Source: Ruditapes philippinarum
Lineage: Eukaryota
Reading direction: 5' to 3'
Length of the DNA stretch: 64,000 nt
Assembly (NCBI RefSeq): GCF_026571515.1
Contig: NW_026866095.1
Location: 62,001-126,000, forward strand
A program made the translations under genes and the position numbers. How positions within the stretch are numbered: the first letter of the stretch is position 1; each line of letters opens with the position of its first letter. This document shows positions 6,401 to 57,942 of the stretch, in pieces. Under the pieces are notes generated by a model that was not told the DNA's origin, did not search any database, and saw only the letters and a list, made by a program, of their open reading frames with translations.

Positions 6401-9400
6401 AGTTAGCATCTTCATAGCTACATAAGGGAATAGATTGAAACTTCACACACTTATTTGAGAGAATAACAGGAGCTCACTATCCCAGGTCCATAACTCTAAC
6501 ATGGATTTTTACAGAATTATGGCCCTTTTTGAACATAGAAAATTCTACATTATCCCTTCGCTTGTTTACTATCAATCACTGTGAAAAGTCGAGCCCGCTA
6601 TTCTACAAAGAGCTTTGTTTGTTTGTTTTTTGTTTGGTTTCGACTCTCCTTACTTAATGACATTTAGCTCGACTATTCGAAGAATATGAGAGCTATTGTA
6701 GTCGCCCCGGCGTCGGCGTCCGCGTCCGCGTCGGCGTCTGCGTTGGTTAAAGTTTTTTGTAAAGTCAAATATCTCAATTATTACTTGAGATATTCAATTG
6801 AAACTTACAATACTTATTTATAGTAACAAGGTACATCAGATTGACAAGTTGGATAACTCTGCCTACAATATTGACAGAATTATGCCCCTTTTTAACTTAG
6901 AAATTTTGGTTAAAGTTTTTTGTAAAGTCAAATATCTCAATTATTGCTTGAGATATTCAATTGAAACTTACAATACTTATTTATAGTAACAAGGTACATC
7001 AGATTGACAAGTTGGATAACTCTGCCTACAATATTGACAGAATAATGCCCCTTTTTAACTTAGAAATTTCGGTTAAAGTTTTTTGTAAAGTCAAATATCT
7101 CAATTATTGTTTGAGATATTCAATTGAAACTTACAATACTTATTTATAGTAACAATGTACATCAGATTGACAAGTTGGATAACTCTGCCTACCATATTGA
7201 CAGAATTATGCCCCTTTGGAACTTAGAAATTTTGGTTAAAGTTTTTTGTAAAGTCAAATATCTCAATTATTGCTTGAGATAATCAATTGAAATTTAAAAT
7301 ACTTATTTATAGTAACAATGTACATCAGTTTGCAAAATTGCATAACTCTATCTGCAATATTTGCAGAATTATTTACCCCTTTGAAACTTAGAAATTTTGG
7401 TTAAAGGTTAACGGTCTTCAAAGATATTTACTTGAAACTTTACACATGCACTTAGGGTCATAATTGGAGGGTCATAATTGTATGTCACTGACCAAGTTCC
7501 ATAACTCTATCTTGCATTAAGGCTGATTCATATCCCCTTTTCTACTTAGTCTCTTGGTTAATGTTTACATGCAAGTTTTACATATCTCAATAACTATTAA
7601 AGATATTTATTTAAAACTTCACATTATGCATTTAGGGTCATAATTGTAGGTCACTGACAAAGATCCATAATTCTATCTTGCATTTAGGCTGATTTTTCTC
7701 CCCTTTTTCAACTTAGAAATTCATGATAAAGTTTTGCTTGTAAGCTGTTATCTCAATAACTACTGAAGGGTTTGTGCCTTTTTTTGGACAATTTTATGCA
7801 TTCATAATAATAAAGTAGTGATTTACTTGATAAAACATCTTAATAACAAGCCTTTGTACCTTTTCTGTCAAATTAATGTATTCATAGGTAATTAGTATTA
7901 TTATACTCAATAAAAAACCCTTGTGACATTACCTTCCGAATAGTCAACCCAATTCTGTATAATTAGACTCTCTCTAAGGCCTATAACATGAATTTATAAA
8001 AAAAAATTAGCCCTTTTGTGAACTTAAAAAATTTAACAATATCAAGGCTCTTTTACTATCAAGCACTTAGAATAGTCGAGCATGCTGTCCTACAGACAGC
8101 TCTTGTTATTTGGGTAATCAAAAGATTATGATAATATTGAATACATTGAATTACTAAAAGTATATTAACATTTTTCAGGTGGTCAGGAGGCAGAGGATGA
8201 CTTCTTGTTTGGGAGTTACATGCCTTCAGCGGTGGGCTCTAACAGTTCAAGACCAACGTCTCGTAGATCTGTTAGGTATGTCAATTTTATTTCTTTCTTC
8301 TGAAGGGGCGTCTTTTGTTGATTTTTTACGGTCATTCTTGGATCTTGGTTCTTGGATTCTTTTTTGTTAGGAAGCTGTCAGTGATGTAACAGAATGTCAG
8401 TGGTTCTACTCAAGGACCTGCTTGTGCCTAAAATAATGCAAAGAAGGGCATCTGAGATCTTTCTTTACCAGTAATGCTGGAAAGTTCCCATATGACCATT
8501 ACAGTGTCGTAAAAACTCAACTATAACAACTTTCATGTAAAAGTGGATAACTTGATTAAGATTTCCATGTTATTTCAAAAGTCAGGCAAATAAAACTTAT
8601 TGTATGATTTATTTAATCGAATACTAGTACTTAATTGAGTAATTTCTATGTGATCATTGCCAGTCATAGTTACCACAAACTTGCAAAATTTTGTACAAAC
8701 TGAGTTTTGAAACTAGTATAATAATACAGTAAAAACTCTGAAAACCGGAATCCTCTGAAAACCGGACCATTTCAAAAGTCCCGTAAATTCTCCTTATAAT
8801 GTTCATTGAAAAAAAATCCTCTGAATACCGGAACCTCTGAATTCCGAAAACTGGACGATTTTCTATGGTTTCTAATGCTAAACATGCATAAAAAATCCTC
8901 TGAAAACCGGACAGCAGTTTTAAGTGTCAACTTTCTGTGTATTTTAATGTAGATTAAAACATAATCTCAACTGGTGACGTGTTCAATTAACAATTAATGA
9001 TTACCCTTTTTTTTTATCTATGCAGGGGTGAAAACACTTTTCAGTGTGTGTTAATTTCTTATTGGCAATTAAATTGAAGCTCTTCCATCATAATTGTGTC
9101 TTTCCCTGTATAGGCATGGTTTTTCAAAATGTTGTAAATTTGTTGTGTGATTTTTTTTAATATAAAATGTCTAGCAGAATTGAGAAACTTTTGCTGTTTT
9201 GCTTAAAATTTTGACCTTGAAGTTATCCTTGTTTGGATATTAATTAGACTCTATATATGCAAAATATTAATACTAAATTCCATATACATTGAACATGGAT
9301 TTGCATAATAAAATTACTTAAGACATTTATTGCAAAAAGAAATTAAAACATGACTAAGAAAAAAGTGTTGAAAAGTAAATACAAAATGATTGAACAAAGA

Positions 9401-12400: not shown

Positions 12401-15400
12401 TGTTAAACTGGAATAAGACATAATCACTGGATGATCTTGTTTACACAAAAGAACACATAGTTTCATTACTTGTACTGTTTGTAAGCAATTTACCTGGCAT
12501 TAAACAGAAAAAGCGGGGCTAATTTTTTCACTGCTAAACCTGTAAAGGTCTTCTTGGTTAGGTAAAAAAAATAATACTCTATCTTTAAAACATTGTTCTT
12601 TTTATTTTACATTTATTGGTCTTCAATTCAAGGTTTGACTGTAAATAAACATGTAAATATTCTTGTACAATAGAAAAAAAATAACCCTATTTTATACATA
12701 AAAAACCCCTTTTCAGAGGGAAAAAAACCTCCTAAAATTTAGTGCAAATTTGTCCCGATTGAATTTCTGAAGGGGGACGACTATTTTTGTCTCCGCGCCA
12801 GAGTGCGGGAACCAAACCTCCAGTAGAAAAAGCGGACCCAAAGTAGGTTTACGTGTGATGTTGTCAGTGTGATATTTTTAATATCTTCATTGAAATCATC
12901 TTGACGTCATGAAATCATTCACTTATGAACAAAATTTTAGCTTTAGATCTAATAAAAAAGTTTCATTATAAGTCCTCAAGATTACCAAAAATATGCAAAG
13001 AAAATAGAACTTAAGATTATTTATTGATTATAATAGTTATTGATTATTAGTAATTTCATTAACATTTTATTTATGTAAATGCAAAATTGGGGAATCATAC
13101 GTGATGACAAGTTTTAAACTTGATTTTCAAGTTTAAGTCCCAAGTATTTGAGTTTACAGGCATACTCAAATATGTGTGATATGGCCCAGTATTTGGTTTT
13201 TAAGCTTTATTTTTTTACTTGAGTAATTGACTTTAAGTTATTTTTACACTATGCTACTTAGCAGCTTTCCATATTGATCAATGTCTGCAAATAACATTTT
13301 CATATGATTGAAAATTTTTGCTTATATGTATTTCAATTTTTATAGCAGTGCATGCATAGTGCAATATTTGAATCTTTTACCTGTGAGATAATTAATTAAA
13401 TTTACATTTTTTAGTTAGATTGATATTGATTTAAAGAGTCCATCCTATCCAATTTAAACTTATATATTATGTTTCAATTCATAAATAAACCTTTTTATGA
13501 AAGGTTTTGTTTTTAAGTGAAGATTAGTTAACTGAAGCTACTTAAATGGATCTTGATGATTTTAACTGTCAGAGTTAAAAAAAAACAACAGCTATAACAT
13601 TTTAGCTACATCATTAGATAGTTAGTTATAATAGAATAGACTTGACTAAATTTGCTGGTAAAAGGATAACTCACTGATACCAGACGGAAACATCTGAATT
13701 TATTGAATATGTGCATAAATAAGGTAATATTTAATTAGACAAATTTAGCAAGAGTTATCTTGTTTGAAACCATAGAAAATAATGTATAATATTTAGATAC
13801 AATTACTGTGTGCTCTCAATGCATGTCTGTCAAAACTTAACCCTTAATCTGCTGCAAGAGATCAGCCTTTGTCACTAGTATAGAGCCAGGCCTGTCTGTA
13901 TATCCATTTAGTCTAAACAGGCTCTATACTATTGCTTGCTTAATTTTGGTATTTTTATACTGAAATCTTCAAATGAACAGTTCCAAATTCAAAGCAGTGT
14001 AAATCCATTATACAGATTCAGCAGAATAGGGGTAAACTATTGAGTGTTATCAAATAACGACATTTTATGCTCTGTTTTTTTTAGTAGGTCTTGAGCTAAC
14101 ACGGGGGCCTGCCCAGGCTCTTTCTGTTGGCTTCTTATTTTATTTTGGTAAGTCATATCTTTTGCTGCATGTGGACTTTTAAAGTAAAAGCAAAAAATTT
14201 CATTAATAAAACAGCAATAAGGACAGAAATCAAAAAAATCATTTAAAAAACCCTTGATATATGTATAATATATATTATTATTTTTTTAATTTTGTTTTTT
14301 AAAGAGATCAGGGATGTTTCAGATGTTTGGGGTACATATGTCATATCATTTTGTTATAATCCACCAGTCAGTTGTTACCATGGTCCCCTACACCAGGCAG
14401 GAACGGAGATTATGAGCCAAGTTTTTACCTGCAGCCGATTTGTTTTGGGTAGAATGTGATATTGCCAAATCCCAGTGCAGGGGCATTTAGTTATGAGCTT
14501 GGGTTTTACTGGGGTTTAAATAATCCAATAGCCAAAGTTTCTACAATTCTGTAGGTGTTTGGGGGCCGTGATAAATATTGACTGGTGCATAACAGAACAG
14601 GAGCGGTTCTAGGTCACATGTTTCAATTCAGATATAAATATATTTGACTGTTTCAAAGTGTATTTTGTAAGAAAGCTTAATTTCACACCTTAAACAGAGA
14701 TTTATTTTATGTCAAAATTGGAACTGGATTACTGCTAATTATAGCATTTATTTACAGTCAAGTTTTCTTTTTATTTTAGTTGTATTTGATAAAAAAAATT
14801 CATTGTAAATGTTGTTGTGCCAAGATATGATTTTATCAGTTTGAAAAAGTGGCGAGTGTCTTTAGCTCAAATAATGTTAACAGGTAAAATGCCTATAGTA
14901 GGGAGCCAGGGCCGATATGCCATTCTGGCGAGGCTTTTCATGGTTAACTGCCAAGTTTTATTATTTTGATATTTGAGATTCAAACTAAAACACAACCTCA
15001 GTGCAGACTATTTAATATTTTGGATTATAAAGTATGAAAAGTCACATTCAATAAGATATACATATAAAATATCTTTTAAAGAAAGCATGCTTGACTGTAA
15101 ATATATATGCTCAAGAAAGAGCTTTGAATTATAATCAGACTCCAGATTATTGTATTTTTTACACAAACTTTATTTTTGTTTAATTCAGACATTTTGCTTT
15201 CTGTGTTGTGTTTTATGTTTATTGTGGATGTTTAAATGTTGTCACATTATGTGGATGTTTAAATGTTGTCACATTATCATTTAATTTAAAGGTCACATTA
15301 TCATGGTCATTTAACTGTAGGGTCACATGATCATTTAACTATATGGTCACATGATCATTTAACTATATGGTCACATGATCATTTAACTATAAGATCACAC

Positions 15401-18400
15401 GATCAGTTAGCATAATGTCAGATGATCATTTAATTGTAGGGTCACATGATCATTTAACTATATGGTCACATGATCATTTAACTATATGGTCACATGATCA
15501 TTGAGCTATAAGGTCATGTGATCATTGAACTATAAGGTCACATGATCAGTTAGAATAATGTCACATGATCTTTTAACTGTAGGGTCACATGATCATTTAA
15601 CAGTTAGGTCACATGATTGTTTAACTTGATGGTCTCATGATCATTTAACTATAAGATCCCATGATCAGTTAGCATAATGTCACATGATCATTTAACCATA
15701 CATGATAAGGTCTCACTTCTAAACTTGCCTCCACATTGTGGTAAAGAAACAGCTTTAAAATGGATGACTTTAGTAATTAGGTAATTTTGAAGGTAAACAT
15801 TTAACAATTGTATCATTGCATAATATTAATTTCATCTTTTATAATCTAAATCATCATGGTCTGTAATAATTCTAATATATTTCTTTTTAGCTCGACTATT
15901 CGAAGAATATGAGAGCTATTGTAGTCGGCGTCAGCGTCCGCGTCGGCGTCTGCGTTGGTTAAAGTTTTTTGTAAATTCAAATATCTCAATTATTACTTGA
16001 GATATTAAATTGAAACTTACAATACTTATTTATAGTAACAAGGTACATCAGATTGACAAGTTGGATAACTCTGCCTACAATATTGACAGAATTATGCCCC
16101 TTTGGAACTTAGAAATTTTGGTTAAAGTTTTTTTGTAAAGTCAAATATCTCAATTATTGCTTGAGATATTCAATTGAAATTTAAAATACTTTTTTATAGT
16201 AACAATGTACATCAGTTTGCAAAATTGCATAACTCTGCCTGCAATATTTGCAGAATTATTTGCCCCTTTGAAACTTAGAAATTTTGGTTAAAGGTCTTCA
16301 AAGATATTTACTTGAAACTTTACACATGCACTTAGGGTCATAATTGGAGGGTCATAATTGTATGTCACTGACCAAGTTCCATAACTCTGTCTTGCATTAA
16401 GGCTGATTCATATCCCCTTTTCTACTTAGTGTCTTGGTTAATGTTTACATGCAAGTTTTACATATCTCAATAACTATTAAAGATATTTATTTAAAACTTC
16501 ACATATGCATTTAGGGTCATAATTGTAGGTCACTGACAAAGATCCATAATTCTATCTTGCATTTAGGCTGATTTTTCTCCCCTTTTTCAACTTAGAAATT
16601 CATGGTAAAGTTTTGCTTGTAAGCTGTTATCTCAATAACTACTGAAGGGTTTGTGCCTTTTTTGGGACAATTTTATGCATTCATAATAATAAAGCAGTGA
16701 TTTACTTGATAAAACATCTTAATAACAAGCCTTTGTACCTTTTCTGTCAAATTTATGTATTCATAGGTAATTAGTATTATTATACTCAATAAAACACCGT
16801 TGTGACATTACCTTCCAAATAGTCAAGCCAATACTGTATAATTAGACTCTCTTTAAGGCCTATAACATGAATTTATAAAAAAAAATTAGCCCTTTTGTGA
16901 ACTTAAAAAATTTAACAGTATCAAGGCTCTTTACTATCAAGCACTTAGAATAGTCGAGCGTGCTGTCCTACCGACAGCTCTTGTTATTATGATGTAGTTA
17001 CTTGTTTTAAAAATAAACACTTTTAAGAGGAATCATTTATAAACAAAGCATTTTATAGTAGTTTTGTAAAAACTGCAAGTGAAAGACAAAAATTAGTTCG
17101 TGTTACCTTAAAATAAATACCTGAAATCCAACTTTTCCTTTCTCTGCTATATCAACAAAGATATATACATGTACCTATTTTGAAGGACGGCTTCTCTGTC
17201 TAATTTTTGTAAAAAATTGAAGCTTCCAAAAGTTTGAACATTAATTATTATCGTCATGAATATGTGCAAAATAATTCATACAAAAAAATATTGTTTTTAG
17301 ACTTATCTTTATATTATAATTCTTTAGTGTACATGTTTAAGTACATTAGCTTTATAAGCAATGGAAGGGTATTTTACCTTAGTGACATTAATATATGGGT
17401 AAATATTTATCTTTATTTCAGTAGTAAGAAACCATTGTTTGAGTCAGCAGTAAGGAGAAATCAGATGAATATGTCTCCAAGATTCAAGAAAGAAGGTCAG
17501 AGAAAAAGCCCTAGAAGCCCTGAAAGGAAACGTAAATAAGTTTGATTCATTAAATAAACATTTGAAGCATTCCCTTAAATGATGAATAAAACTTGTATAG
17601 AATTTCTGTCAATGTAGAGCCATCATTTTGGTATCAGATTTTTTCAATGTTGGTGCAAAATGACCTTTACCATTTGAGAAAGACCACTTTACAACAGAGA
17701 CCTATTGTCATTCCCCTGGTCTTAATAGACAAGTTAACTTTTGAATATTTAGGATTATAGCTTACATTGTCATAATGTAAGACAAATGAATAATAATGCA
17801 TTTATCTGTGACTAACAATCATAACATTTATGTATGTCTACTTTTATATATATTACTATGTATAAATATTGTTTATACATCTATTAGTTTTAGAGACAAG
17901 TCCCCGTTCCAAGTCTTTATTGGAGCAACTGAAAACACTTCCATCAGCACAACCACCTGAACAACAACAACAGCCAGTATCTGGTATGCAGCAGTCAGCA
18001 ATACAAACATCTCCAGTACCAAACTCAAGTCAACAACAGCAGCAGCCAGAAACTGAGCAAGCTGAAGATGAATTAAACTCATCAACAGATTTCTTTAGTT
18101 TTAAGAGGAAGGACACAAGCAGGGACCAGTCTGCTGATTTACAGACTGGTTTACAACAGACAGGTTCGACTCAAACCAGTCTACCACAAAGTCTACCACA
18201 GACTAGTTCCTTGCAGATGGGAATGCAACCAGACTTTACAGTTCAAGCCAGTATCCAGTCTACTCAGAATATGGGATTCCCATCTAGCTCCCAGCAGTAT
18301 CAGACTGGTATTCCAAGTATGCCAGATATGATGACTGGTTCTCAGATGTCTGGTACCCAGCAGTTACAACAACAACAGCAACTTCTGCAGCGTCAGCAGC

Positions 18401-21400
18401 AAATAAAACAGCAACAGATAATGAAACAGGTACAGCGACAGCAACAAATGTTGCAGAGACAGCAACAGCAATTTCAACAGCAATTACAGCAACAACTTCA
18501 GCAACCACTTGTCCCAGAAGCACAGGTATATTGTTTAAATGTGTACAGTTTTGGGCTGATTGAGTTTATACTGTTTCTATATTTCTATGTTGCTTTTATA
18601 GTTGAAATAAAAAAAAAGATATGTAAGAAGTAACAACAATAATAATTTCAATAATTTTGAAAGGGTTTTCAATGCTTGTTGTGCATAACATCAGCCAAAT
18701 ATTTTTAAATATTATTTATTTTTTCATATATTGACATTTCAGTTATTCAGCACAGGAAGTTCAATGTTTATGGATGACATGAGTTTTGGTCTGGCAGGCC
18801 AGGTGGATCTTGATGCTCAGTCCAAGGTTTGAGCCTTTTGTGACTTAAACATAACCAGGCTAAAATTTTTGAAAAAAAAATACCAGTGATTTTCTGCATA
18901 GACATTTAGAAAAGTAGCTTATTATCCCCCGCCGAAAAGGCGGCGGGGAAAAAAAAAAATAGTCTCCGTCCGTCTGTCCGTCCGACCTTCCGTCCGTCCG
19001 TCCGTCCTTCCGTCCGACATTTTTGTCCAGAGCATATCTCTAAAAGTATTTGAGTTATCAACTTGAAACTTCATAGGCTGATAGACCTCATTGAGGAGGA
19101 GTGCAGTGCACAAGAATGATAACTCTACCCTGCATAATTTTTGAGTTATTGCCCTTTGTTATTTTTCAAAATTGATTTTTGTCCAGATCATAACTCCAAA
19201 AGCCTATGAGATATCAACATGAAACTTCATAGGTGCATATATCTCACTCAGGAGGTGTGCAGTGCACAAGAATGATAACTCTACCTTTCATAATTTTTGA
19301 GATATTGCCCTTTGTTATTTTTCATACTTAATTTTTCACCTGAGTGGAGCAAAACTCAAAAGTGTTTGAGATATCAACATGAAATGTCATAGTTGGATAG
19401 ATCTTATTGAGGAGGAATGTTGTGCGCAAGAATGATAACTCTTCCCTATACAATTTTTGAGTTATTGCCCTTTGTTCTTTTTCATGCTATTTTGTCCAGA
19501 GCTTATCTCAAAAAGTATTTGAGGTATCAACTTGAAACTTCATAGGTGGATGGATCTTATTGAGGAGGAGTGCATTGCACAAGAATGATAACTCTACCCT
19601 GCATTATTTTTGAGTTATTGCCCTTTGTTATTTTTCAAAATTTATTTTTGTCCAGAGCATAACTAAAAAAGCCTTTGAGATATCAAAATGAAACTTCATA
19701 GGTGCATAGATCTCACTCAGGAGGTGTGCAGTGCACAAGAATGATAACTCTACCTTTCATAATTTTTGAGTTATTGCCCTTTGTTATTTTTCATACCTAA
19801 TTTTTCACCCGAGTGGAGCATAACTCAAAAAGTGTTTGAGATGTCAACATGAAATGTCATATGTGGATAGATTTTAATGAGGAGGAATGCTGTGCACAAG
19901 AATGATAACTCTTCCCTGTACAATTTTTGAGTTCTTGCCCTTTGTTCTTTTTCATACTATTTTGTCCGGAGCTTATCTCAAAAAGTATTTGAGGTATCAA
20001 CTTGAAACTTCATAGGTGGATGAATCTCATTGAGGCAGAGTGCAGTGCACAAGAACGATAACTCTACCCTGCATAATTGTTTTAGTTATTGCCCTTTTTT
20101 ATTTTTCAAAATTAATTTTTGTCCAGAGCATAACTCAAAAGGCCTTTGAGATATCATTATGAAACTTCATAGGTGCATAGATCTCACTCAGGAGTTGTGC
20201 AGTGCACAAGAATGATAACTCTACCATTTATAATTTTTGAGTTATTGCCCTTTGTTATTTTTCATACTTAATTTTTCAATTCAATTTTTTTCTCAAAAAG
20301 TATTTGAGGTACCAACTTGAAACTTCATAGGTGGATAGATTTTACTGAGGAGGGATGCAGCACACAAGAATGATAACCTACCCTGCATTATTTTTCAGTT
20401 ATTGCCCTTTGTTATTTTCAGCCATCAGTATTCACATAGGTTTCAAATCTGTAATCACTATAGCCATCAGTTTTCATTACCAAAAGACCTCTTAAAATGG
20501 AATTATTCTGCTCTACTACATAATTATACATTCTTCCAATGAGCAAACACATTCGGCGGGGGATGGCCATGTTGACATGGCTCTTGTTTGATTTTTGAAA
20601 TACAATTAATCAAAATATAAGATTAAAAAACAAAATGTGTTTCACTAAAAAAATCTGTTAAAAAACAAAATGTGTTGCACTTAAAAAATCTGTTTTTGAA
20701 TAATGTCCAACAGTTAGAGCACTAACAAAAACTTTTTGTGAAAATAAGAAGAACTGATGGGTAATTACAAAGGTAGTACAATTTCTGACAAACTAATCTG
20801 TTTTACAGATCCGACGTTTAGAGGTTGAGCTACAGTATGCTAAAGATATCTTGGCCAGTACTAAACTGAGGTACGAGGAAGAAATTGCAGCCATAGAAAC
20901 ATCATTCAAGTAAGTCAAACTTTATATAATACATAGAGGGGAGATGTGACCTAGTGGTTCCAGTGTCTGCCAGTCTAGCCAGGGATTGCAGGTGTCATGA
21001 AATTGTTACCTTATACATGTATCTCACAAGAGAGCTTCCCAAGATGCTACAAGTTTTTTCACAAACTGTAAAAGATAATATATAAACAAAGTTGTTACTT
21101 CAAGCTTTAAGTAATGTGAAAAAAAGACACAAAATGTTCTTTTCTAAACTAAAAAGGCAAAAAATTGTTGCAATGTTTGATGTAAAAGAGCATGAACTCC
21201 TCAGAGAAGTATAATGTTACATATTTTATAAAGAATGAAATGATGTATCTAATTTGTATAGTCATAATTTTAAATATGTATAATTGTGTTTACTGTCATT
21301 GTTTTATTTATTATGTTCATTTTGCAGGAACAGAATTGCTCTCCAAGAGGAAACTCACACTAAAAGAGAGCAAAGGTAAGTGTTTAAGAAATAACCTTAG

Positions 21401-30571: not shown

Positions 30572-31966
30572 TTTTATATGCCCGAAAGAATTTCGGGCAT
30601 ATTATGTTATACCCCCTGGTGTCCGTCTGTCCGTCCGTCCGTACGTCTGTTAGCAATTTGGTTTCCGGAGCATAACTTAAGTTCCATTTGGCCCACAGTA
30701 TTCAAACTTCATAGGATGATTGCCCATATTGGATAGAAGACCCCTATTGATTTTGGGGTCACAAGGTCAAAGTCACTATTAGCTAAATACTGAAAATGGT
30801 TTCCGGAGCATAACTTAAGTTCCATTTGACCCACAGTATTTAAACTTCATAGGATGATTGCCCATATTGGGTAGAAGACTCCTATTGATTTTGGGGTCAC
30901 AAGGTCAAAGGTCAAGGTCACTATTAGCTTAATACTGAAAATGGTTTCCGGACCATAACTTAAGTTCCATTTGACCCACAGTATTCAAACTTCATAGGGT
31001 GATTGCCTATATTAAGTAGAAGACCCCTATTGATTTTGGGGTCACAAGGTCAAAGGTCAAGGTCACTATTAGCTTAATACTGAAAATGATTTCCGGAGCA
31101 TAACTTAAGTTCCATTTGGCCCACAGTATTCAAACTTCATAGGGTGATTGCCCATATTGGGTAGAAGACCCCTATTGATTTTGGGGTCACAAGGTTAAAG
31201 GTCAAGGTCACTATTAGCTAAATACTGAAAATGGTTTCTGGAGCATAACTTTAGTTCCATTTGACCCACAGTATTCAAACTTCATAGGATGATTGTCCAT
31301 ATGTGGTAGAAGACCCCTATTGATTTTGGCGTCACAAGGTTAAAGGTCAAGGTCACTTTTAGCTAAATACGTAAAATGGTTTCCGAAGCATAACTTAAGT
31401 TCCATTTGACCCACAGTATTCAAACTTCATAGGATGATTGTCCATATGTGGAAGAAGACCCCTATTGATTTTGGGGTCACAAAATCAAAGGTCAAGGTCA
31501 CTATTAGCTTAATACTGAAAATAGTTTCTGGAGCATAACCTAAGTTCCATTTGGCCCACAGTATTCAAACTTCATAGGATGATTGTTCATATTGGGTAGA
31601 AGACCGCTATTGATTTTGGGGTCACAAGGTCAAAGATCAAGGGATTACTATCACCTTTAAACTGGAAACAGTTTTCGCTCAATATCTCAAGTATTAATCG
31701 AACTACAGCTGTAAAATTATATAGGATTAACAGCTTTATACCCCTGACGTCTTGGTGTCCATCCGTTGTAGCATTTTTACTTACAAGATAACAAGTTGAT
31801 GGTGGTGCTTTGAAAACAGCAACTGTATATATACATGAATGTTCTTCAGCTATAAAGGAGGATTGCTTTTGGAAGGAGGTAATACTGTATTTAATTCCCA
31901 TGTCTTCCTCACTAAAAGAAAGAGTACTTTCGGGCATATAATGCTCCACCTAGCGGTGCTCTTGTT
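30572..31966 (+). mobile_element. Helentron/HINE element with seven 145-bp units (first 138 bp)
   Basis: IR TATATGCCCGAAAG/CTTTCGGGCATATA, (GTCC)n, units starting 30661, 30799, 30944, 31089, 31234, 31379, 31524, CTTGTT end. Confidence 0.85.
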
Positions 31967-32251: not shown

Positions 32252-33397
32252 AACAAGAAACGCCGCAATGCGACGAAAACCAGGTTTTCAACGACCAAGT
32301 TTTGATGTGACAGCAATCAATAGGTCAAAGTGCACTGAAGTTATGGAGTAGAAGCTGAAAATTCTATTGTAAGCAAATGACCTTGAACTTGCTCCCAGAT
32401 ATCTAAGTGGCAATCCAAAGCTGCCACTCAGCAAGTTTGGTGTCAAAAGGTCAAAGCAAACTCAAGTTATAACATGAAATCTAAATACATTGACCTTGAT
32501 CACAGAAACCTGGATAGCAATCCCAAGCTGCCTCTTGATATAAGCTACCCATTTATCAAGTTTGGTGTCAATAGGCCAAAGCAAACTCAAGCTATTGAGC
32601 AGAAACTGAATTTCTATTTTTAGTAACAGTGACCTTGACCTTGATCAAAGACACCTGGGTAGCAATCCCAAGCAGCCTCTTGATATAAGCTATCCATACA
32701 CCAAATTTGGTGTCAATAAGCCAAAGCAAACTCAAGTTATTAAGCGGAAACTGAATTTCTATTTTTAGTAACAGTGACCTTGATCACAGACACCTGGGTA
32801 GCAATCCCAAGCTGCTTCTTAATATAAGCTATCCATACACCTTGTTTGGTGTCAATAGGCCAAAGCAAACTCAAGTTATTGAGCGGAAACTGAATTTCTA
32901 TTTTTAGTAACAGTGACCTTGACCTTGATCACAGACATCTGGGTAGCAATCCTAAGCTGCCTCTTGATATAAGCTATCCATATACCAAGTTTGGTGTCAA
33001 TAGGCCAAAGCAAAGTCAAGTTATTGAGCAGAAACTGAATTTCTATTTTTAGTAACAGTGACCTTGACCTTGATCACAGACATCTGGGTAGCAATCCCAA
33101 GCTGCCTCTTGATATAAGCTATCCATACACCAAGTTTAGTGTCAATAGGTCAAAGCAAACTCAAGTTATTGAGCAGAAACTGAATTTCTATTTTTAGTAA
33201 CAGTGACCTTGACCTTGATCACAGACATCCGAGTAGCAATCCCAAGCTGCCTCTTGATATAAGCTACCTACACACCAAGTTTGGTGTCAATAGGCCAAAG
33301 CAAACTAAAGTTATTGAGCGGAAACCAAAAGATGACGCCCGGCCGCCGACTTCGGCATTACAATTACCCGGCTTTCGTTGAAAACCTGGTTAAAAAA
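32252..33397 (-). mobile_element. Helentron/HINE element with about six 145-bp units
   Basis: IR CCAGGTTTTCAACGA/TCGTTGAAAACCTGG, AACAAG end (CTTGTT on minus), GTGACCTTGAC core. Confidence 0.85.
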
Positions 33398-37224: not shown

Positions 37225-37900
37225 GACAGGTCATATGACACTCAATGTACACAAATCAGGTCATATGACACTCAATGTACACAAATCTGGTTATATGATA
37301 CATACCATAAAGGTCATATGACAAAAAGTGTACACAAATCAGGTCATATGACACTCAATGTACACAAATCTGGTTATATGATACATACCACAAATAAAGG
37401 TCATATGACAACAAAAAGTGTACACAAATCAGGTCATATGACACTCAATGTACATAAATCAGGTTATATGATACATACCACAAATAAAGGTCATATGACA
37501 AAAAGTGTACACAAATCAGGTCATATGACACTCAATGTACACAAATCAGGTTATATGATACATACCATAAATAAAGGTCATATGACAAAAAGTGTACACA
37601 AATCAGGTCATATGACACTCAATGTACACAAATCAGGTTATATGATACATACCACAAATAAAGGTCATATGACAAAAAGTGTACACAAATCAGGTTATAT
37701 GATACATACCATAAATAAAGGTCATATGACAAAAAGTGTACACAAATCAGGTCATATGATACATACCATAAATAAACCAGGTCATATCACAAAAAGTGTA
37801 CACAGAGCAGATTGTTTGACAGACTGTACATACACAAATTAGGTCATTTTGCACACAGACCTTACACAAAAAAGGTCATATGACACAGAATGCACACAAA
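37225..37900. repeat. Minisatellite of 27-30-bp units with an 87-bp higher-order period
   Basis: AAATCAGGTCATATGACACTCAATGTACAC and variants; produces the repetitive ORF 37129..37842. Confidence 0.9.
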
Positions 37901-41624: not shown

Positions 41625-42857
41625 AACAAGAGGGCCATAATGGCCCTGAGGTCGCTCACCTGTCAAGTGGCCCCTCAGTGGGGCCAGTTTAAACCCTAAG
41701 GCTTTTATTTGAACAAACTTGGAAGACACCCATTAGAAGATGTTTCATGTTGTTTAGTTTTTACTACACACATATAATGATGTTGTTTAGTTTTTACTAC
41801 ACACATATAATGAAAAACAATGACCTGCCCCCCCCCTCTGGCAGGGCCAATTTCAACCCAAGGGCTTTTATTTGAACAAACTTGGTAGACACCCATAAGA
41901 AGATGTTTCATGCTAAATATCTAAGCTCTAGCTCATTGGGTTTTTTAAAAGAAGAAATTTTATGTTTTTACTATACAAATATATCTAAAAACAATGACAC
42001 CCCAAGGGCGGGGTCAGTTTTGACCCCAGGGCTTTTATTTTGAACAAACTTTGTAGACACTTACTAGAAGATGTTTCATGCTTAATATCTAAACTCTAGC
42101 TATTTGGGTTTTTTCAAAGAAGATTTTTAAGTTTTTGCTATATACACATATAAGGAAAATTAATGACACCCGGGACGGGGCCAATTTTGACCCCAGGGCT
42201 TTTTATTTGAACAAACTTTGTAGACACTCACTAGAAGATGTTTCATGCTTAATATCTAAACTCTAGCTATTTTGGTTTTTTCATAGAAGATTTTTGAAGT
42301 TTTTACTATACACATATAAGGAAAATCAATGACCCCCGGGGCGGTGCCAATTTTGACCCCAGGGCTTTTATTTGAACAAACTTGGTAGACACCCATTAGA
42401 ACATGTTTAATGCTAAATATGTTAGCTCTAGCTCTTTGAGTTCTTTAAAAGAAGATTGTTTAAGTTTTTACTATATGCATATAGGGAAAATCAATGACCC
42501 CCGGGGCGGGGCCAATTTTGACCCCAGGGCTTTTATTTGAACAAACTTGGTAGACACTTATTAGAACATGTTTCATGCTAAATATCTTAGCTCTAACTCT
42601 TTTGGTTTTTTAAAAGAAGATATTTAAAGTTTTTTCTTTCGGTTGCCATGGCAACCAGAGTTCTGCATGGAATTAAATTCTTTGAACAATTTTTAAAGGT
42701 GACCACCAAAGGAACATTCCTGTGAAGTTTGGATGAAATTGGCTTAGTGGTTTATGAGGAGATGTCATTTAAAGTAAAAGTTTACGGACGGCCGGACGCC
42801 GGACGAAAAGCGATCACAAAAGCTTACCCTGTCACTTTGTGACAGGTGAGCTAAAAA
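41625..42857 (-). mobile_element. Helentron/HINE element with about 165-170-bp units, just 3' of the SPHK stop codon
   Basis: IR GCTCACCTGTCA/TGACAGGTGAGC, hairpin AGGGCCAT-A-ATGGCCCT, GGAC-type microsatellite, AACAAG end. Confidence 0.85.
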
Positions 42858-46025: not shown

Positions 46026-49000
46026 CCCTTTTTCCTGAACAACAATATTCCTACTTAGAGAAACAATAACTAATTTATGAGACTTAAACAGAAATAACTA
46101 AAATGTTTATTGTCTTATAAAGACAGGGTCATCAAAAAAAGACAAGTTAAACATGTACACAATATTGTAGCTTCCTATACATATTGGTGACTTCTTACAA
46201 GAAATATATATATTATACATATGCACTTACTACAGGGAAGTTTTCCCTGAACATGTATTTGATAAATAAAACTCCCTCAATACCCTTGAAACCTAGCAAT
46301 GAATACACTCAATGCCATTTACAAGTACAGCAATATTAAAAACAAATTCTTTTGTTGTTCTTTTTTTTTCAATCCTACAGTATAGCCAGCAATATTCAAG
46401 CTGAAAATATTTTTTTTGAATTTATGAAAAGTATAATATAAATGTATTAAAACTATGTCAAATCTGATAAACAAACAATAAACTACTTGTAAGGCCTGAG
46501 AGCTTGACATTTTAAGTCATCCTGTACATATCCCCCACTATAGACATCTAATGACAGTTTTAAATCTTCACTTCCTACTCAAATCACTTCCAGATTTGAC
46601 CCCCTTAAACCTGACATTTCATAACTTCATATATCTATACTGGCCTTTTTCCTTTCATATCTTTCATATAATATATATTTATATTTATACTATAGGTCAT
46701 GGTTTCTAGCTGTCCCGGTGAGTCACTGTTTTATTAAAATATCAGGCCATAAATATAGTGACACAACACTGAATGCAACAGTCCTAGAACTATCATCCCC
46801 CGTAACTTGCTGAGCAACACTGGAATAGTTGGTGACAAATGGGAGATTTAAATTTCATTGTTAAATATTTTCATAATGGTTAGTTATAGATAAAGCCAAC
46901 AACCTTACATATGTGAGGCCATCACTTGGAAATGTTTCAAGGTAACAATGACCAGTTCTACATGAAAACATTGTAAATCAATTACACAGATAATAGTATA
47001 TCAAGATTAACTTGTTTAATGTTACACCTCAAACACATTTTTGACCATTTATTTTGACACTGGACATTGGGTTTAAGCTCTTCTGCAAATTTTCAAATTC
47101 TTCTTCAAAGCAAACAGAAAAGGAAGAAAAACAAACATCCCTGTAATTCACACCAAATTGAAACTGGTTAAATTTCTTTTACATTTAACATATATAAATA
47201 TGGTATACAACTCTTTGTTTAAAACCAAGAAGTTTATTGCAATTATTTCCTTAAAACATTCCCTATCAAAGTGCATGCATCTTTGTCAAGTAGCAGGAAT
47301 TTGCCTGTTAACATAGCCCTTAGCCTTTAGTCAGAAACTGTATTTATCTATATGAACACTTCCTTGCCATCTGATCATGGTCTGCACTACTATTCACTCT
47401 GTATTCATTTTAAATTTTCCCTATATATGATGGACAGTCTTGTTCAAATTGAATGATGGACAAGTCCATTGAAGATATTTAGTATCTTAAGGGTTAAACA
47501 GTTAAAAGTCTAGTATCAGTTCAAACTACATGGAAGTTTATTCTTATGAGAAGAAGTGTCACTTGTGTTTATTTCAACAAATTTAATATGAAATGTGCCC
47601 TTGCTAATTTAATGAAGAAGAGCTTTATGACTGTTTGTTCGATATAAAAAACTTAACTATTGTCACATTAGAAGAGGTCTTGACATTAATGATCCATGCA
47701 ATTTGATCAATCAACTCACTGACAATGGCTCAATTTCATTATATTGGGCCTTGAATGACCTATAATCATTATCATGAAGACATGTGTGAAATTCTAAGAG
47801 AATACCTTCTTTGGGTATGGAGAACTTGTATGCCAAACCATGAAATTTAAGTTAAATCTGCTGAAAGTCTATTACAGAATTGTGTCTAAAAAAGTGGCCA
47901 AAATATCTGATCCCATAGACATGTGTGATGTTTCAAATTAATACTTTCAGTGCCTGACATTAAACGTGATGTTCATTAACAAAGGGGTATAATCCATTCA
48001 AAAACCCATTATCCATATTATGGATATTGTATTCTCAACTAAATATGTTATATGGTAAATGCTACAAGCAAAACTTCAACTAAGTTTACATTGTGTCAGA
48101 GTGAGTAGGTTAACCCCACTGTTCTTCATATCTACTGTTCTTCAAACAGTCAAGCTAAAAACGTGCAATAAAATGCACACAAGACAAGTCTATTATATAA
48201 CAATGGTGATGACAGAATTAACATTAAATAAATTACCCAGCTGAGTAGTTTATTGAGCAAGCTAGAGCATTTCCTGATCCCCCTGGTATACAACCAATTG
48301 GTGTCTTTATGGCATCTTGCCAATCGTCACGGTTCATTAAACCATTTATCACCTGTAGAAAAAAATATCAAAATCATTTTGACATATGTAAATTGATTAT
48401 CTGTATCATTGTGAACATTGATTAATATCAATGAAATCATATTTAATGAACACATCTTGTGGATACAGCAATGTTTTTGTACTAAAATCATTACCTTTAT
48501 TCATTACTAGCAACACTGATAGTCATTTAGTACTAGTAATTAATAATAGCATTATTCACTGATGATAAATATCATTGTAACTTCTTCCATTCAGCCAATT
48601 TAATCTAAAGTTGACGGAATTTGATCTCCAACCAAATTAACACAAAAAAAATCCAACATTTCTAAGATGAAAAGTCCTAATGCATTTCCCACTGAGCTTA
48701 TAATTTCTTGTGGACATCTGATTTTTATATAAAATGTAAACCATGGAATAAGTGTTGTTATATGAAAGTTCCACACTGTGTATTAATATGTATTATCTAA
48801 GGAGGAAACTATACAGTGGACATGATATATTTTATAACAATTTATTCTTTTTATGAACAGTATTCATAAGCATTTAACATTACAACTCTTTCTGTAATTG
48901 ACCATTACACTTTAGAAACAACATAATTGGACAATTTATAAATTTTATAAAAAAAACATTAGATATAGATTTATACCCTTTTTGGCAAAACCTTGTATTT

Positions 49001-50531
49001 AGAGAGTACATATATTGGTGGTAAACCAAATTCTGCCAATATATATCTTACAAACAAATAATACCCTGACAAGTCCAATTTGGTCATGATTTTATCAAAC
49101 TCTTAGCATGATCATTATATTTCTCTGTTTATTGTCAGGAAATCTGGAGCTCCTAGATATTAACGAGTCTACCAATTCTAACCATATCAATCTAAATCAA
49201 TAGTAGTTCTGAATGTTATTTCTTTCTTTTAACTGCAAATTGGCACAACGAAATGAACATTACTCTTCTGTTCCAACAACCCACTCCTATACTGTGCAGC
49301 ATTATTTAAACTAATGTCTTTTTAGGAGATAAATATGCACATAATCATTTATAACATAAATTTACTTTTGTAGGCTTTGAAAGGAATTTAGACATTTATG
49401 TGGCACTGTCAAAAACAATTTCTTTATGAAGGTTAATTCAAAGACATTGACCTTACCTCATAGATAAGACATTAACCATACCTCATAGATGAGACCTTAC
49501 CTCACAGATAAGTCATTGACCTTGCCTCATAGATAAGACATTGACCTTGCCTCATAGATAAGACATTGACCATACCTCATAGATAAGACATTGACCTTGC
49601 CTCATAGATGAGACCTTGCCTCATAGATAAGACATTGACCTTGCCTCATAGATATCAACCTTGCCTCATAGATAAGACATTGACCTTACCTCGTAAATAA
49701 GACCGTCTCCTGACACTATAACCACTCCATCATAATCTTTCCTATTCATTGATTTCATTAGTTCTGTGCCATGTCCTGCATGCTCTGTAATCATATATAA
49801 CCAAAATTTTATTACTCATTCCTGGTAAGACTAAATAAGAGATTTTTGCCAATACTGGCAAATTACTATATATAATATCATTTTATTGTCTCTCTCTCAC
49901 TCTCTCTGAGAAACATCTAAAATTGATATTGACACTAAGGAGGTCACTGGGCAATAAATATGCATTGTTGGTGTAAATTTCACAAAAGTTTGGTAACTTT
50001 CCAGTTCCAAAGGTTTTCAATATCATCCTACAACAGATTTCATACAGTTATATTATTATCCTTTTTCAAGTATAGATCAACATACATGTAGTTTTAAAAT
50101 CTTGCTATTTTGTATATTTAGCTTTTATTTATCAATATTCTTTGCATTAATTTTCTTCAGTTTTTTTGCTTGTATACTGAAATATTGTATGGTTCAAATA
50201 ATTGTTTACTAACTTCAATGTGAGATGATTCAAAATGATTGTCTTGGTAATATTTGTCATGTGGGGATCAACTAAGAAATATAGTTAACTTCCAATATAA
50301 ACAGAAATTTTAAAAACATACAGAAATTAAAACCTTGACTTGAAGGTTAAGAATATTAAAATATTGGAACATATCAATTACCAGTTTCTATAAGTTTGAC
50401 ATGGACATCAGCCTCATCCAGCATTGGGGCCACTTGTTTCTGATAAATCTGCATAGCTTTACCTGGACCACTATGTGGGTTCACTAGCACCAAAAATTTT
50501 ACTTTAGGAGGCACAGGACAATTGTCTACAT
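42984..50531 (-). CDS. SPHK: Sphingosine kinase (SPHK1/2 family), 5 exons, 5'-partial
   Basis: Spliced product has VLVNPHSGPGKA (C1), VIVSGDGLIYEVINGL (C2), IPGGSGNAL (C3), LSLAWGLLADIDYESEQFRAIGEARFT (C4) and MVDGE (C5); all junctions keep phase. Confidence 0.95.
45091..45311 (-). CDS. SPHK: SPHK exon (ESVQIEAVLH...GEARFTLQAIRRIF)
   Basis: tttcag acceptor, T|gtaagt donor; C4 motif. Confidence 0.95.
45992..46025. repeat. (AATC)n microsatellite
   Basis: About 8 copies. Confidence 0.9.
48237..48352 (-). CDS. SPHK: SPHK exon (VINGLMNRDDWQDAIKTPIGCIPGGSGNALACSINYSAG)
   Basis: ctacag acceptor, GG|gtaatt donor. Confidence 0.95.
49441..49703 (-). repeat. 25-bp (some 19-20-bp) minisatellite copied from the SPHK exon/intron donor junction
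   Basis: Minus-strand unit GTCTTATCTATGAG|G(T/C)A(A/T)GGTCAAT, 10 copies beyond the real junction. Confidence 0.92.
49690..49784 (-). CDS. SPHK: SPHK exon (EHAGHGTELMKSMNRKDYDGVVIVSGDGLIYE)
   Basis: ttacag acceptor, GAG|gtaagg donor; SGDG motif. Confidence 0.95.
50382..50531 (-). CDS. SPHK: SPHK exon (VDNCPVPPKVKFLVLVNPHSGPGKA...IET)
   Basis: ttacag acceptor, G|gtaatt donor on minus strand. Confidence 0.92.
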
Positions 50532-52004
50532 CTGTAATGGGGAAAAAACAACATATTGTTACTATAAATAAATAGACAATCAATGAATAGGGAACGTCTC
50601 AATCCATGTGACAAACTTTGATTGCAACAACACATCGACACAACAATATGCCCCTTTTTTATTCCTTTTAAAATTTACAGGATAAATTATATATGCCCAA
50701 AAATTATATTTCTTATTGCTTTGGCATCTTGTTTTAAAGATAAGCTCAAACATCTCCTCTCTCAATTTTGAAGAAGTTTTACTGTACAGGTCTATCCTTG
50801 GCCGACAAAAAATGTGAACAAATATTTGCGTCCAATCTCAGTGTCCAATCAATACAGCCAATCATATTTTATTAGATTTAGGATAAACCAGCATTATAAA
50901 GGATGACACCAGTCCATGCATTAGATTTCCCAAATGTTGTTTTCTGTACTAGAAAATTGTGCAAAACCTTAATCAATTATTAGTAAACGTGTTTTAAAGC
51001 CACTTAGACAAGACACAGAAACTTGAAAGGGAAATCCTGGGGGGATATTAATGTTCGAGATTAATGAAACTGCCGATGAGGCAACTTTCTGCTAGGATTC
51101 ATTAATGGGATCTGTTATATTCACAATCAATAGTAAAACAACTACATTGGTATATTATATATATAACATAAGTACAAAATGGTTTTTCATTAAGTTTGTA
51201 TCTTCATTTTATATGATTGCATTCCAATCACTTCATACTGCTAAATAACCAATAAGATTTGTTGCTTTTTTTGTAATCTCTTGTATAATTATATGCATTT
51301 ATTATCTTCAAATTTAAAGATTTTTAACAATTCCAAATATGACAGATCTTTTACGCGATAATGTTTGAGAAATCCCTATAATTCTACAGTCGTGCTTAGT
51401 AGGACTACTTAGTTGAACTCACTAATGAATAGACTCACTAAGGAATAGTGCACTGATCTTTGTTAACAAAAGTCACTCAATACGTCTGTGACAAAGTGTA
51501 TGCTGGCCTTAATCTAAACTAGTAACAAAGTCAAGTATTATCATTGGCAGCACTAAACATGGTAAACATGTTATTACAATCTATATACATATAAGTTCTG
51601 TCTATGTATCATCACATTAATAAGCAGGCTACAAGGATAATTACATGAGTTGACATGTTGATCATTTTATTAATGCATTATTATGAATTACATGTCCTGG
51701 AAATTGTGTAAATGGCTTCAGGGAATAATGACACCAATATGTCATTTAGTACATTATAATGGACATTACCAAATTAAAACCCCACTAAAGGACATGATTT
51801 TATATGACAGTTTTAGTTGAAAACAATATTTGTTCCATCAAGTCTAATACACCTCTGCTGTTTTAGATGACTTAACAATGTGTAGAAGTTTGCATAAAAT
51901 TGACATAAGTGGCAAATACAACAGACTTTTGCCATCAGAATCATAACATAGTATTACACAAACTATAAATAACATCATTATTGCAAATTTTAACTCCCTA
52001 AATA

Positions 52005-52603: not shown

Positions 52604-52871
52604 GAGTACAGAACAATCCCCACAATGATCACTGTCTCTGAGTGAAAACATTTATCAAGAAATGACAACAATCATGTTGCTTAAATGTTGGCAGTTACTT
52701 GAGTACCAGTAAGTTCTAGGTCATTTTTGTATAAAAAACAAACTTAAATATTTTGGGTATATTTAGTATCTGTCCTTACATAGCAAATGTGTCACTTTAT
52801 AGCAAATGTCTATAAAAAACTATGATTATATTCATTGTATATGTTAATATTTATATACATATATATAACAT

Positions 52872-53147
52872 GGGGCGCGTCCGTGGCCGAGTGGTTAAGG
52901 TCGTTGACTTCAAGCCACTTGCCCCTCACCGCTGTGGGTTCGAATCCCCCACAGGGACTTTGGATTCTTTCATGTGAGGAAGCTATCCAGCTAGCTTACG
53001 GAACGTCGGTGGTTCTACTCAGGTGCCTGTTCGTGCCTGAAATAATGCACGGAAGGGCACCTGAGGTCTTCCTCCACCAGTAAAGCTGGAACGTCGCAAT
53101 ATGACCTATACTGTGTCGATGTGACGTAAAACTCAAAACAAAAAAAC
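52872..53147 (+). mobile_element. Intact tRNA-derived SINE (central domain resembles mollusc Meta-SINEs, from recall)
   Basis: A box TGGCCGAGTGG, B box GGTTCGAATCC, A-rich tail, 11-bp TSD ATATAACATGG at 52863-52873 and 53148-53158. Confidence 0.92.
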
Positions 53148-56100
53148 ATATAACATGGAACAAGGCATAATCTCAGCTCAAGTCATCCCATTCATCTTTA
53201 CAGTTTGACCAGGTTCTATAATACCATTCTACTCAATTTTTGCATTTTGATATTGAAATCCCTTTCACTAATAATGGACTATTCCAAATTCAAAGCAGGA
53301 CAACAACCATTATATAGGTATATAGGTCCGGCATAGTGAACATTACGATTATATCAAGCAGAAAATGAAAACAAATAAAATGGTACAGTATTTATTTATT
53401 TTCAACCAAATAAAAGATTAATGAATCACTGAATTGTAAAAATGCAACATTGATTTCACTGATCAAATAAATGAAACTATCATATATAGCTTTAGGCATT
53501 AATATTTATTTTATGACTCACTAGCTTAATTCATTTACATTTTAATATTTTCTACACAGATCCGCTTCAAAGGAGTTCATGTTTAATGAAGTGAATAAAT
53601 TCACATATGTTTCTCATTTCCTTTAACATAATGACATCTATTACAGCATATGCTTAAATCACTTCAAATTTACTTACCCAACCCAAAAACAGAGAAAGAA
53701 AAATATAATTATAAGTAAAATGAGATTAGAAAGTAAAAATCTACCCTTTTTTCTGAAAAATATTTATAAATGGTCTTGCCCTCTTTGAATTTAGAACATT
53801 CCATTGTTATGATAGGGGATTTCAATATTGAAATATCAAAATTTAACATCGAACAACACAAATAGTCTAGCCAGTCTGCAGAGTGGCCTCAGACACAACC
53901 AATTGTCATTTCCAGGATTCAAAGGCATTAAGTAAAATATTTATTCAGAGCAGGCAAAAAATGGGGGGAAAAATTGAAATTCATATATTCATAATATATG
54001 TGATAATTAAGATATGTCCAATCACATGCGATCATTATCCAAAAAAAAGCTTTGTCACACCTTAGATATAGGTAAAATTTTGAAGATAATTTATTCAAAA
54101 TTCTAATTGCAAAATATGAACAGTTATAAATTCCATGCACAATTTGAAGTTATAAATTTAATTAGTGAGTCATAGTTGTTGATTACGCCTTCATGCCAAA
54201 GGAAATATTTTGGCTTCTTTCAACTGAATTTCAAATAAATTTATGATTCATAATTTGAAACATTTTGTCATTCAGGTGGGTTTTGTTATGCAAAGTCTCA
54301 AATATATATTTCTCATGTGAAATTTAGTCATCAACAGTGTCTATATAGCATTAAATTTAAATTGCAAAATGGCCTTGAAGTTCTGTTTCTAAGAATAGCC
54401 TTGAATTTCAGACGTAATAAATTTTTTCTTCCAGTAATCATTTTCACATCAGCCACTTCATATTATAACCGGTAGCAACGATTTCCAAAAATTAAAACAC
54501 TTCAATCTCTTTCTAAAACTGTTTAAAATGTTAAATGCATCTCTGTTACAATACAACTACTTGCCAGTCTGTTGTAATGTTGACCTTAACAGCCTGGCAA
54601 GGACTTTTAGATTTTCAAAGCCCTATTGGGGCAGTGTGATGTTAAATATCCACACTGCACCCACTGAATTTGTGTGATTGAATTCTTATCAATTTTTATT
54701 ATACCAAGTATTAGTGAAAGCAATTCAACAGCATTGTAAAATTCGAAAAAAAAATAGAATAAAAAAATTTCAGACAATGTAAATCAACCATTTGTATAAT
54801 CTATAAATAAATATTGTTTATTCATTTATTCATCACATTATTCTGTAAATTATATACTTCAAACTAAAATAAACTGATTTATAAACAGTTTGAAAATAAA
54901 GGAAATTAACTGCAGATATTCCAGTCTGGTATAGCACATTAATTTTGTTACATCTTTTACCTAAAAATAATGTCTACTTCTGCTTTAGTTATTTGCAATC
55001 TGAAGCATCCCTGAAATGTTACAATGGACACTTCCAAATCTAAGACTGGAACTGCCTATTACTCAAAATAAAGGATTGTGGACAAGTTTACTAATCACTG
55101 ATGTGCAGTGAACAAAAACGCTATTCAGGCACAATCTGGCAACCGTTTAGTAGCTACTTCACATTCAGGGCTTAAACTTTGAATGTGACTTGTCCGTTTA
55201 ACAAAGTCACAGACTGTAAACAATTATGGTTAAAATTAATCTATGCAATATAACCTATTATAGCTTTCAAGTTCTTTTAAAATCTATATGAATTACAATT
55301 AAAATTAAAGATTTCACTGCAAAAGTATTTGTAATTTTCAAAGTAAGAAGCTGAAAACTGAACAATCCAAATACATGATAAATATACAAGAAGAAATTTG
55401 GTACATGAAGGCTATGAAATAAAACAGAACAAAACTTCCAACAACATAAACTACCAACACCATCACAGCCAATCCATCACCAGGTTCCAATTACACTAAT
55501 TTTACCTCAATGGGCTAACATCATTCAATTTTAGTTTTTAGAATTGTCTTACATAGACAAGACAGACAGAGTTTTAACAGAACATATGCTAGAATAGTAG
55601 TGACTCTTTCCTTTTAATTAAAATTGAATCCTACTATGAAATTTCCTACTACTTTATTTCATTGATAGAATTCACGTATTTGTTTTTTCCCCAACGAAAA
55701 CATATCTTTTTCCCAATCAGTGAAAAGTGATAGTTCTAAATTTTAGTTATAGTTCTAAATTTTAGTTTTATATGACCAGGGGTCATCTCATTGTATGTAT
55801 TTATTCTAGGCTTAATGAGGGTCCACCAGACCTTTCAGGACCCCAGACATGTTATCAACCATGTCCTTGGTCATCTAATTAAATTTGTCATTTTCTGTTA
55901 AATAAGAAATGACTCATGCTCACCTTCGTGGGATACTTTGCCTCCCTAATTCTAGAACTGTTCTTCCACCCTTACAGTATAGACAGCCCCTAACAAAGAA
56001 TCATTGTACAAGAGGTACAGAGACTGCCTGCTTTATTATAAGTGAAAGTCATTAGGATTTAGTCAATATTCTGTTCTGTTGATACATTCATTGTCCAGCT

Positions 56101-57775: not shown

Positions 57776-57942
57776 CACTACAATTCTATATATTTTACAC
57801 AGACAGGACTTGCCTATTTCAATTGATGCTTCTTCTTGTTTTGATTCCTTTGCTAAAAATAAACAAAACATGCAACAACCATATTATACAACAATAAAAA
57901 CTAAAACTCAACTGATACATGGTAAATTCATGCATTTATGTA

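Follow-up and report, generated by a model that had tools for sequence, protein, structure and literature searches.

The window analysed here is a stretch of 64,000 nt of Ruditapes philippinarum contig NW_026866095.1, and its minus strand carries a gene that sequence and structure comparisons identify as a sphingosine kinase (SPHK). Four of the five exon-containing stretches scanned match Pfam DAGK_cat or YegS_C, the best structure hits of both exons flanking the intron considered here are to human SPHK1, and the last exon is 97 % identical to the sphingosine kinase of R. philippinarum (Manila clam) and 79 % identical to that of Mercenaria. Five exons were mapped by tblastn with the R. philippinarum SPHK, the focal exon at 100 % identity, and RefSeq isoforms X1 and X2 both run on as YEVING across the focal junction. 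The exons around this junction are:

50382..50531, minus strand: upstream exon with the LVNPHSG motif (RNA joint, tblastn)
49690..49784, minus strand: focal SPHK exon, 95 nt, ending in SGDGLIYE (RNA joints, tblastn at 100 %, DAGK_cat, SPHK1 structures)
48237..48352, minus strand: downstream exon (VINGLMN...PGGSGNALA) with its acceptor at 48352 (RNA joint, SPHK1 structure hits, tblastn)

Four sequencing runs (X5, X13, X15, and X24) were placed on positions 48150-50650, X5 and X13 being DNA and X15 RNA contigs. In record 10 of RNA run X15, a contig of depth 83.9 without mismatches, 50382 is spliced to 49784 and 49690 to 48352. These joints set the length of the focal exon at 95 nt and confirm the acceptor and real donor named in the initial annotation of this DNA.

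On the minus strand the authentic junction reads GTCTTATTTACGAG/GTAAGGTCAAT, or in a longer rendering ACGGTCTTATTTACGAG/GTAAGGTCAAT, with intron base 1 at 49689. It forms the first unit of a minisatellite that runs on into the intron (TRF: period 25, 11.2 copies, 49441-49703), the last 14 nt of the focal exon being the first half of unit 0.

49441..49703, minus strand: junction-spanning minisatellite; 25-nt unit of 14 nt of exon end and 11 nt of intron start, in 11.2 copies with the real junction counted
49703-49679, minus strand: unit 0, straddling the RNA-confirmed exon/intron junction
49684..49692, minus strand: authentic donor GAG/GTAAGG, intron start 49689 (RNA contig joint)
49666..49668, minus strand: in-frame TGA, intron codon 8, common to all ten decoy products
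49595..49667, minus strand: pseudo-donors D1-D4 (49664, 49644, 49619, 49600), all GAG/GCAAGG
49520..49578, minus strand: pseudo-donors D5-D7, GTATGG at 49575 (D5), GCAAGG at 49550 (D6) and 49525 (D7)
49451..49503, minus strand: pseudo-donors D8-D10, intact GTAAGG at 49500 (D8) and 49456 (D10), GTATGG at 49481 (D9)

The ten pseudo-donors lie at +25, 45, 70, 89, 114, 139, 164, 189, 208, and 233, with one unit of 20 nt, two of 19 nt, and the others of 25 nt; the first description of these copies, as a 25-mer with some units of 19-20 nt, was accurate in every detail examined. In order from D1 to D10 they read GCAAGG (four times), GTATGG, GCAAGG (twice), GTAAGG, GTATGG, and GTAAGG. The tally is therefore six GC copies, two GTATGG, and two intact GTAAGG, with the four nearest all GC and the intact pair distal, as had been stated. 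Compared with the real donor at -3 to +8, two of the ten copies are identical and eight (8/10) are weakened by one core change, including all of the first seven. Splicing from D8 or D10 would make exons of 284 or 328 nt, respectively. Within the 64-kb window the unit motif is matched 11 times, each time inside the array, against a chance expectation (shuffle mean) of 1.0.

Read-through into the intron gives VRSMSYL followed by the TGA at codon 8 (49668-49666), so that the earlier claim that every decoy product is truncated there holds. The stop lies close to residue 237 of 632 and is followed by three more exons. As a general rule, a premature stop ahead of later junctions is expected to lead to NMD, and because of the position of this stop the decoy products are predicted NMD targets and would be removed.

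Local origin of the repeat unit

The unit was derived locally from the gene's own junction, as the initial annotation had proposed: it retains LIYE, has no other match in the window, and produces no spike in depth. LIYE is a conserved SPHK motif, and the exon-like halves of the units still encode it in six of seven ungapped copies, the seventh reading LICE. Two synonymous sites, -7 and -4 (49696 and 49693, minus strand), set all ten intron copies apart from the exon, with ATC TAT in the copies and ATT TAC in the exon. Either the exon has drifted since the birth of the array or the founder copy had mutated, TACG>TATG being a CpG change. As all ten copies share the difference, there has been no recent copying of the real unit into the array, and D1 gets no resupply of GT.

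In the DNA runs the depth over the array is 7-23 (X5) and 12-33 (X13), against flanks of ~10 and ~30, respectively. The array thus has a depth like its flanks and lacks the spike of the dispersed repeat at 48906-48989, showing that the unit is single-locus. This dispersed-repeat stretch, in the same SPHK intron, reaches depths of 136 and 434 in two DNA runs vs the flanks of ~10 and ~30.

It is very improbable that the array arose in assembly, or that it is a dispersed clam satellite with a chance resemblance to the junction. No contig spans the whole array and repeats containing AAGGTC are common in the window, as such an account would have it. However, contigs of all three samples X5, X13, and X15 extend into the array at its distal side, as do those of X5 and X13 at the proximal side, the units differ from one another by structured variants, and both the even depth and the single-locus, LIYE-encoding unit argue against it. 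Contig 16 of X5 passes through D1, the first GC copy, with no mismatches in 175 nt, and the GC of D1 is therefore identical in another sample. One X13 contig over the array, at half the depth of its flanks, has seven mismatches in 185 nt and no gaps, which suggests differing alleles. The net lengths of the X5 and X15 contigs differ too, but X13 has a like net insertion in a contig with scarcely any of the array in it, so the length differences are not assignable to the array and no claim on copy number is made.

The two ends of the array share a 5-mer:

49699..49703, minus strand: exonic GTCTT, first 5 nt of the array, putative seed microhomology
49441..49445, minus strand: second GTCTT, last 5 nt of the array, partner of the putative seed microhomology

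Such a remnant is expected if two 5-nt repeats lying 25 nt from each other gave rise to a duplication, and points to an ordinary slippage origin. The model of Haber and Louis, as described in the available text of PMC6947457, has minisatellites born from flanking repeats of 5-10 bp.

Comparison with other genomes ties the array to this lineage. Searching metagenome contigs for the SGDGLIYEV coding pattern yielded 11 loci, of which eight share the 95-nt exon and the intron position and three are without the intron. The eight represent about five distinct animal lineages (there are three near-duplicate pairs), with exon identities of 52-72 of 95 nt. In none of these eight was a copy of the locus's own junction found downstream (best 12-16 of 25 matches, vs 22-23 of 25 in the clam). 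Since junction copies are missing from 8/8 homologous introns, the array is lineage-specific. An exact search for the array unit in the metagenome contigs gave no match.

The window is rich in repeats, with 12 tandem arrays covering 7,037 of 64,000 nt and seed units that sum to 1.5 % of the window; in a window with this many arrays some are expected to be seeded on splice sites by chance. Among them are satellite arrays of 145-165-nt units at 6743-7406, 15955-16293, 19019-20418, 30659-31642, 32490-33325, and 41840-42634, those at 6743 and 15955 sharing a unit. The minisatellites at 15268-15700 and 37227-37900 also have GGTCA-like cores. In the long upstream intron, about 52860-53150, lies a putative SINE-like element with a tRNA-like end, recognized by eye.

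Donor use and donor strength

Both splice joints listed for the focal intron region (2/2) are authentic, and both are from X15. No joint from a decoy to the acceptor was present in the four runs, X15 being the only informative RNA run and at contig level, where rare forms are dropped. Intron contigs at depth 3-9 were kept in X15; as contigs drop rare forms, low-level decoy use is still compatible with this run. The authentic upstream donor dominates in the mRNA (one run, contig level). Run X24 was set aside as splicing evidence. Although it is labelled RNA-Seq, its 79 raw reads placed on the region are unspliced, reach a similar depth in exons as in introns, leave the array uncovered, and often show GATC at their loose ends; it looks like genomic or proximity-ligation DNA under an RNA label.

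In predicted U1 duplex energy the real donor and D8/D10 score -10.1 kcal/mol, the GTATGG copies -6.6, and the GC copies -5.4, bearing out the earlier statement that the GC copies are weaker than GT. The authentic donor has the strongest predicted U1 pairing among the five correctly registered true donors of the gene tested, and two ordinary GT donors in the same SPHK gene score only -5.1 and -6.3. A GC donor is also used by the gene itself:

57814..57852, minus strand: 39-nt cassette exon AKESKQEEASIEI, with GC donor TAG/GCAAGT at 57813 (RefSeq X1 vs X2, RNA contig)

The 13 aa of this exon are the sole difference between RefSeq isoforms X1 and X2, and the spliced RNA contig of run X15 continues into it (loose end at 50533). 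Its donor has a predicted U1 energy of -5.8 kcal/mol and the intron spanned is 7.3 kb. Isoform X1 of Mercenaria SPHK has a 12-aa insert at the same place as the 13-aa cassette of the clam. Splicing of the cassette from TAG/GCAAGT indicates that AG/GCAAG is a usable signal in this gene when unopposed. If the GC copies of the array are silent, it is therefore probably their position and the strong upstream GT donor that do the work, and not the GC change alone. Likewise, 15-18 % of GT>GC sites are reported to splice still, chiefly those with strong U1 pairing (10.1101/479493, in the available text). The six GC copies are alike in being +2T>C versions of a strong donor, a context in which GC can work; they are unlike in that the reported variants alter the real site itself, whereas the clam copies compete with an intact GT that lies upstream of them.

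The initial annotation had also raised a copy-number-tunable unproductive-splicing or U1-binding element. On such a reading decoy use and NMD, or titration of U1, would set SPHK dosage in a regulated or allele-dependent way. Every decoy product has the same stop, GC donors work in this gene, the half-depth X13 contig suggests differing alleles, and tandem repeats associated with splicing are numerous in humans (PMC10078293, in the available text). However, the stop follows trivially from the 25-nt unit, and no decoy joint was recovered in X15 although intron contigs were kept (the sensitivity of contigs to rare forms being low). A premature stop upstream of later junctions, as expected of AS-NMD, is present, but conservation in homologous introns is not (0/8). 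In human F7 splicing is unchanged when units are deleted or added, according to the available text of PMC1557585, and the folding of the array is unremarkable. The element finds no positive support here, and such a function is improbable. RNA structure masking the decoys was also considered, the array having a folding z-score of -2.9 relative to dinucleotide shuffles. It was rejected, as 15-31 % of tandem arrays built from shuffled units are equally well folded and the real donor is not set apart from the decoys by predicted accessibility.

A 'poison-donor ladder', in which the GC copies would send a small and regulated fraction of SPHK pre-mRNA into NMD and the proximal GT>GC gradient would reflect selection tuning the leak, is equally a long shot. 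Were it true, alleles differing in copy number or in GT/GC order would set sphingosine-1-phosphate output in wild clams.

Weakened copies near the real donor

With the units taken as independent, the distal position of the GT copies has a rank P of 4/210 = 0.019 (0.048 without the edge unit), and the probability that the first four are GC is 0.071. Array units share ancestry and are not independent, and neutral slippage was therefore simulated with only the exon and the real donor protected. Simulated arrays with 9-11 copies, 5-9 segregating variants, and 2-4 majority differences were kept, giving 2,089-6,210 accepted arrays for each of five parameter sets in a model with arbitrary rates and without indels. 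Of these arrays, 15-18 % had at least six non-GT copies, 6-8 % began with four non-GT copies, 19-23 % began with seven weakened copies, and 5-6 % showed the last two features jointly. Among arrays with 5-7 non-GT copies, 9-18 % matched or exceeded the observed polarity and 53-63 % retained GT in the last unit. An earlier, looser simulation, which had too much fixed divergence, arbitrary rates, and no indels, gave four leading non-GT copies in 11-35 %.

Seven substitution types are present within the array, at -13, -10, -5, +2, +4, +8, and +9, and two of the seven hit the 7-nt donor core, where 2.0 are expected. A 6-nt deletion serves as a marker common to units: it is found with GC in D3 and with GT in D8, and D4, which is GC, sits between the markers. 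As GC and GT each adjoin the same deletion, several conversion events or recurrent mutation are needed, which argues against slippage from a single origin alone.

It is possible, though the less likely explanation, that purifying selection has filtered the alleles, with intact GT close to the real donor leaking into NMD and alleles with GC or GTATGG copies proximally surviving and expanding. Intact copies persist only at +189 and +233 (exons of 284-328 nt), behind seven weakened ones, the naive rank P and the 5-6 % joint frequency lean the same way, D1 is also GC in the X5 sample, and use of pseudo-sites drops with distance in F7 (PMC1557585, in the available text). However, the low P-values treat related units as independent, polarity of this strength is not rare under neutrality, and hits to the donor core are at the level of chance. 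GT>GC is moreover a mild donor kill, with the 15-18 % of sites still splicing (10.1101/479493, in the available text) and TAG/GCAAGT in use in this gene, and the pattern was singled out after the fact. The proximal GC bias is therefore a weak hint, a likelihood nudge from one array chosen for its pattern and not a demonstration. The suggestion in the initial annotation that selection has weakened the competing donors is left with this hint, whilst the neutral alternative that it also offered, a GT>GC change spread by slippage, is the best-supported reading.

We therefore read the array as a locally born minisatellite that is likely to be a splicing-silent by-product of repeat turnover, with a probability of roughly 0.6. 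Slippage between the two GTCTT 5-mers 25 nt apart would have duplicated the junction; further slippage and conversion would have produced 11 units and spread the +2 T>C change through the interior ones, with the distal edge unit keeping the ancestral GT and the real donor held by selection. The spliceosome would then pick the most upstream, strong GAG/GTAAGG donor, as in F7, and any rare decoy product, with its TGA at codon 8, would be removed by NMD at small cost. The shared GTCTT ends, the retained LIYE, the even depth, and the absence from 8/8 homologous introns support this silent by-product reading, as do the two authentic joints, upstream-only use in F7, undisturbed splicing at amphioxus mirages, and the neutral simulation rates. 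Against it are the weakening of all the first seven copies, with a joint pattern in only 5-6 % of neutral runs, and human 6-16 and CBS, where use of the two nearest pseudo-sites indicates that proximal copies can leak.

Comparison with known donor-spanning minisatellites

The arrangement belongs to a class already described, in human F7, CBS, and 6-16 and in the mirages of amphioxus, which the initial annotation had missed. As in that class, the first unit spans the real boundary, the donor is reiterated in the intron, the unit is locally derived, and the upstream donor is dominant. As it stands, one more donor-spanning minisatellite is of small import. It is nevertheless a natural test case: a single real donor is followed, at graded distances, by copies that are intact, GC, or mutated at +4, and the gene is one in which a GC donor is in use. 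If proximal weakening held across many arrays, splice-site competition would be seen to shape minisatellite evolution and the upstream-first rule of donor choice would be tested outside mammals.

A targeted literature search, mainly of open-access papers, found no donor-spanning minisatellite in a bivalve, and no paper was found on a UPF3A-type VNTR donor. No precedent for GT>GC spread over six units was found in the available text on such arrays.

The closest likeness is to the 37-bp VNTR of human F7 intron 7 (IVS7), whose opening unit likewise straddles the exon/intron boundary (Borensztajn et al. 2006, PMC1557585, for this and the following in its available text). Only the upstream donor is used there, and pseudo-sites of up to 91 % consensus do not compete. 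The two arrays are alike in the boundary-spanning first unit, the reiterated donor (5-9 times in the F7 intron), and the upstream donor alone being seen in use. They are unlike in that the F7 pseudo-sites are identical to the real site, whereas 8/10 are weakened and unit lengths vary in the clam. With a different gene and phylum, their origins are independent.

The 31-bp VNTR of human CBS intron 13 and the minisatellite of 6-16 intron 2 have 15-25 pseudo-sites, the two nearest of which are used (via the available text of PMC1557585). A second-repeat substitution in CBS prevents multiple alternate splicing, according to a title cited there. These too are donor-spanning minisatellites, and the second-repeat change in CBS is a precedent for weakened proximal copies; unlike their two used pseudo-sites, no use was detected in the clam (one informative RNA run, contig level).

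Among invertebrates, the mirage repeats of amphioxus in Adh3 and the globins BflGb6 and BflGb9 are likewise tandem copies of an exon/intron boundary, of which many, not all, keep splice signals (PMC3087553, in the available text). Splicing is undisturbed by these repeats and the boundary units escape homogenization. The lancelet units are of 10-160 bp, whereas that of the venerid clam is of 25 bp.
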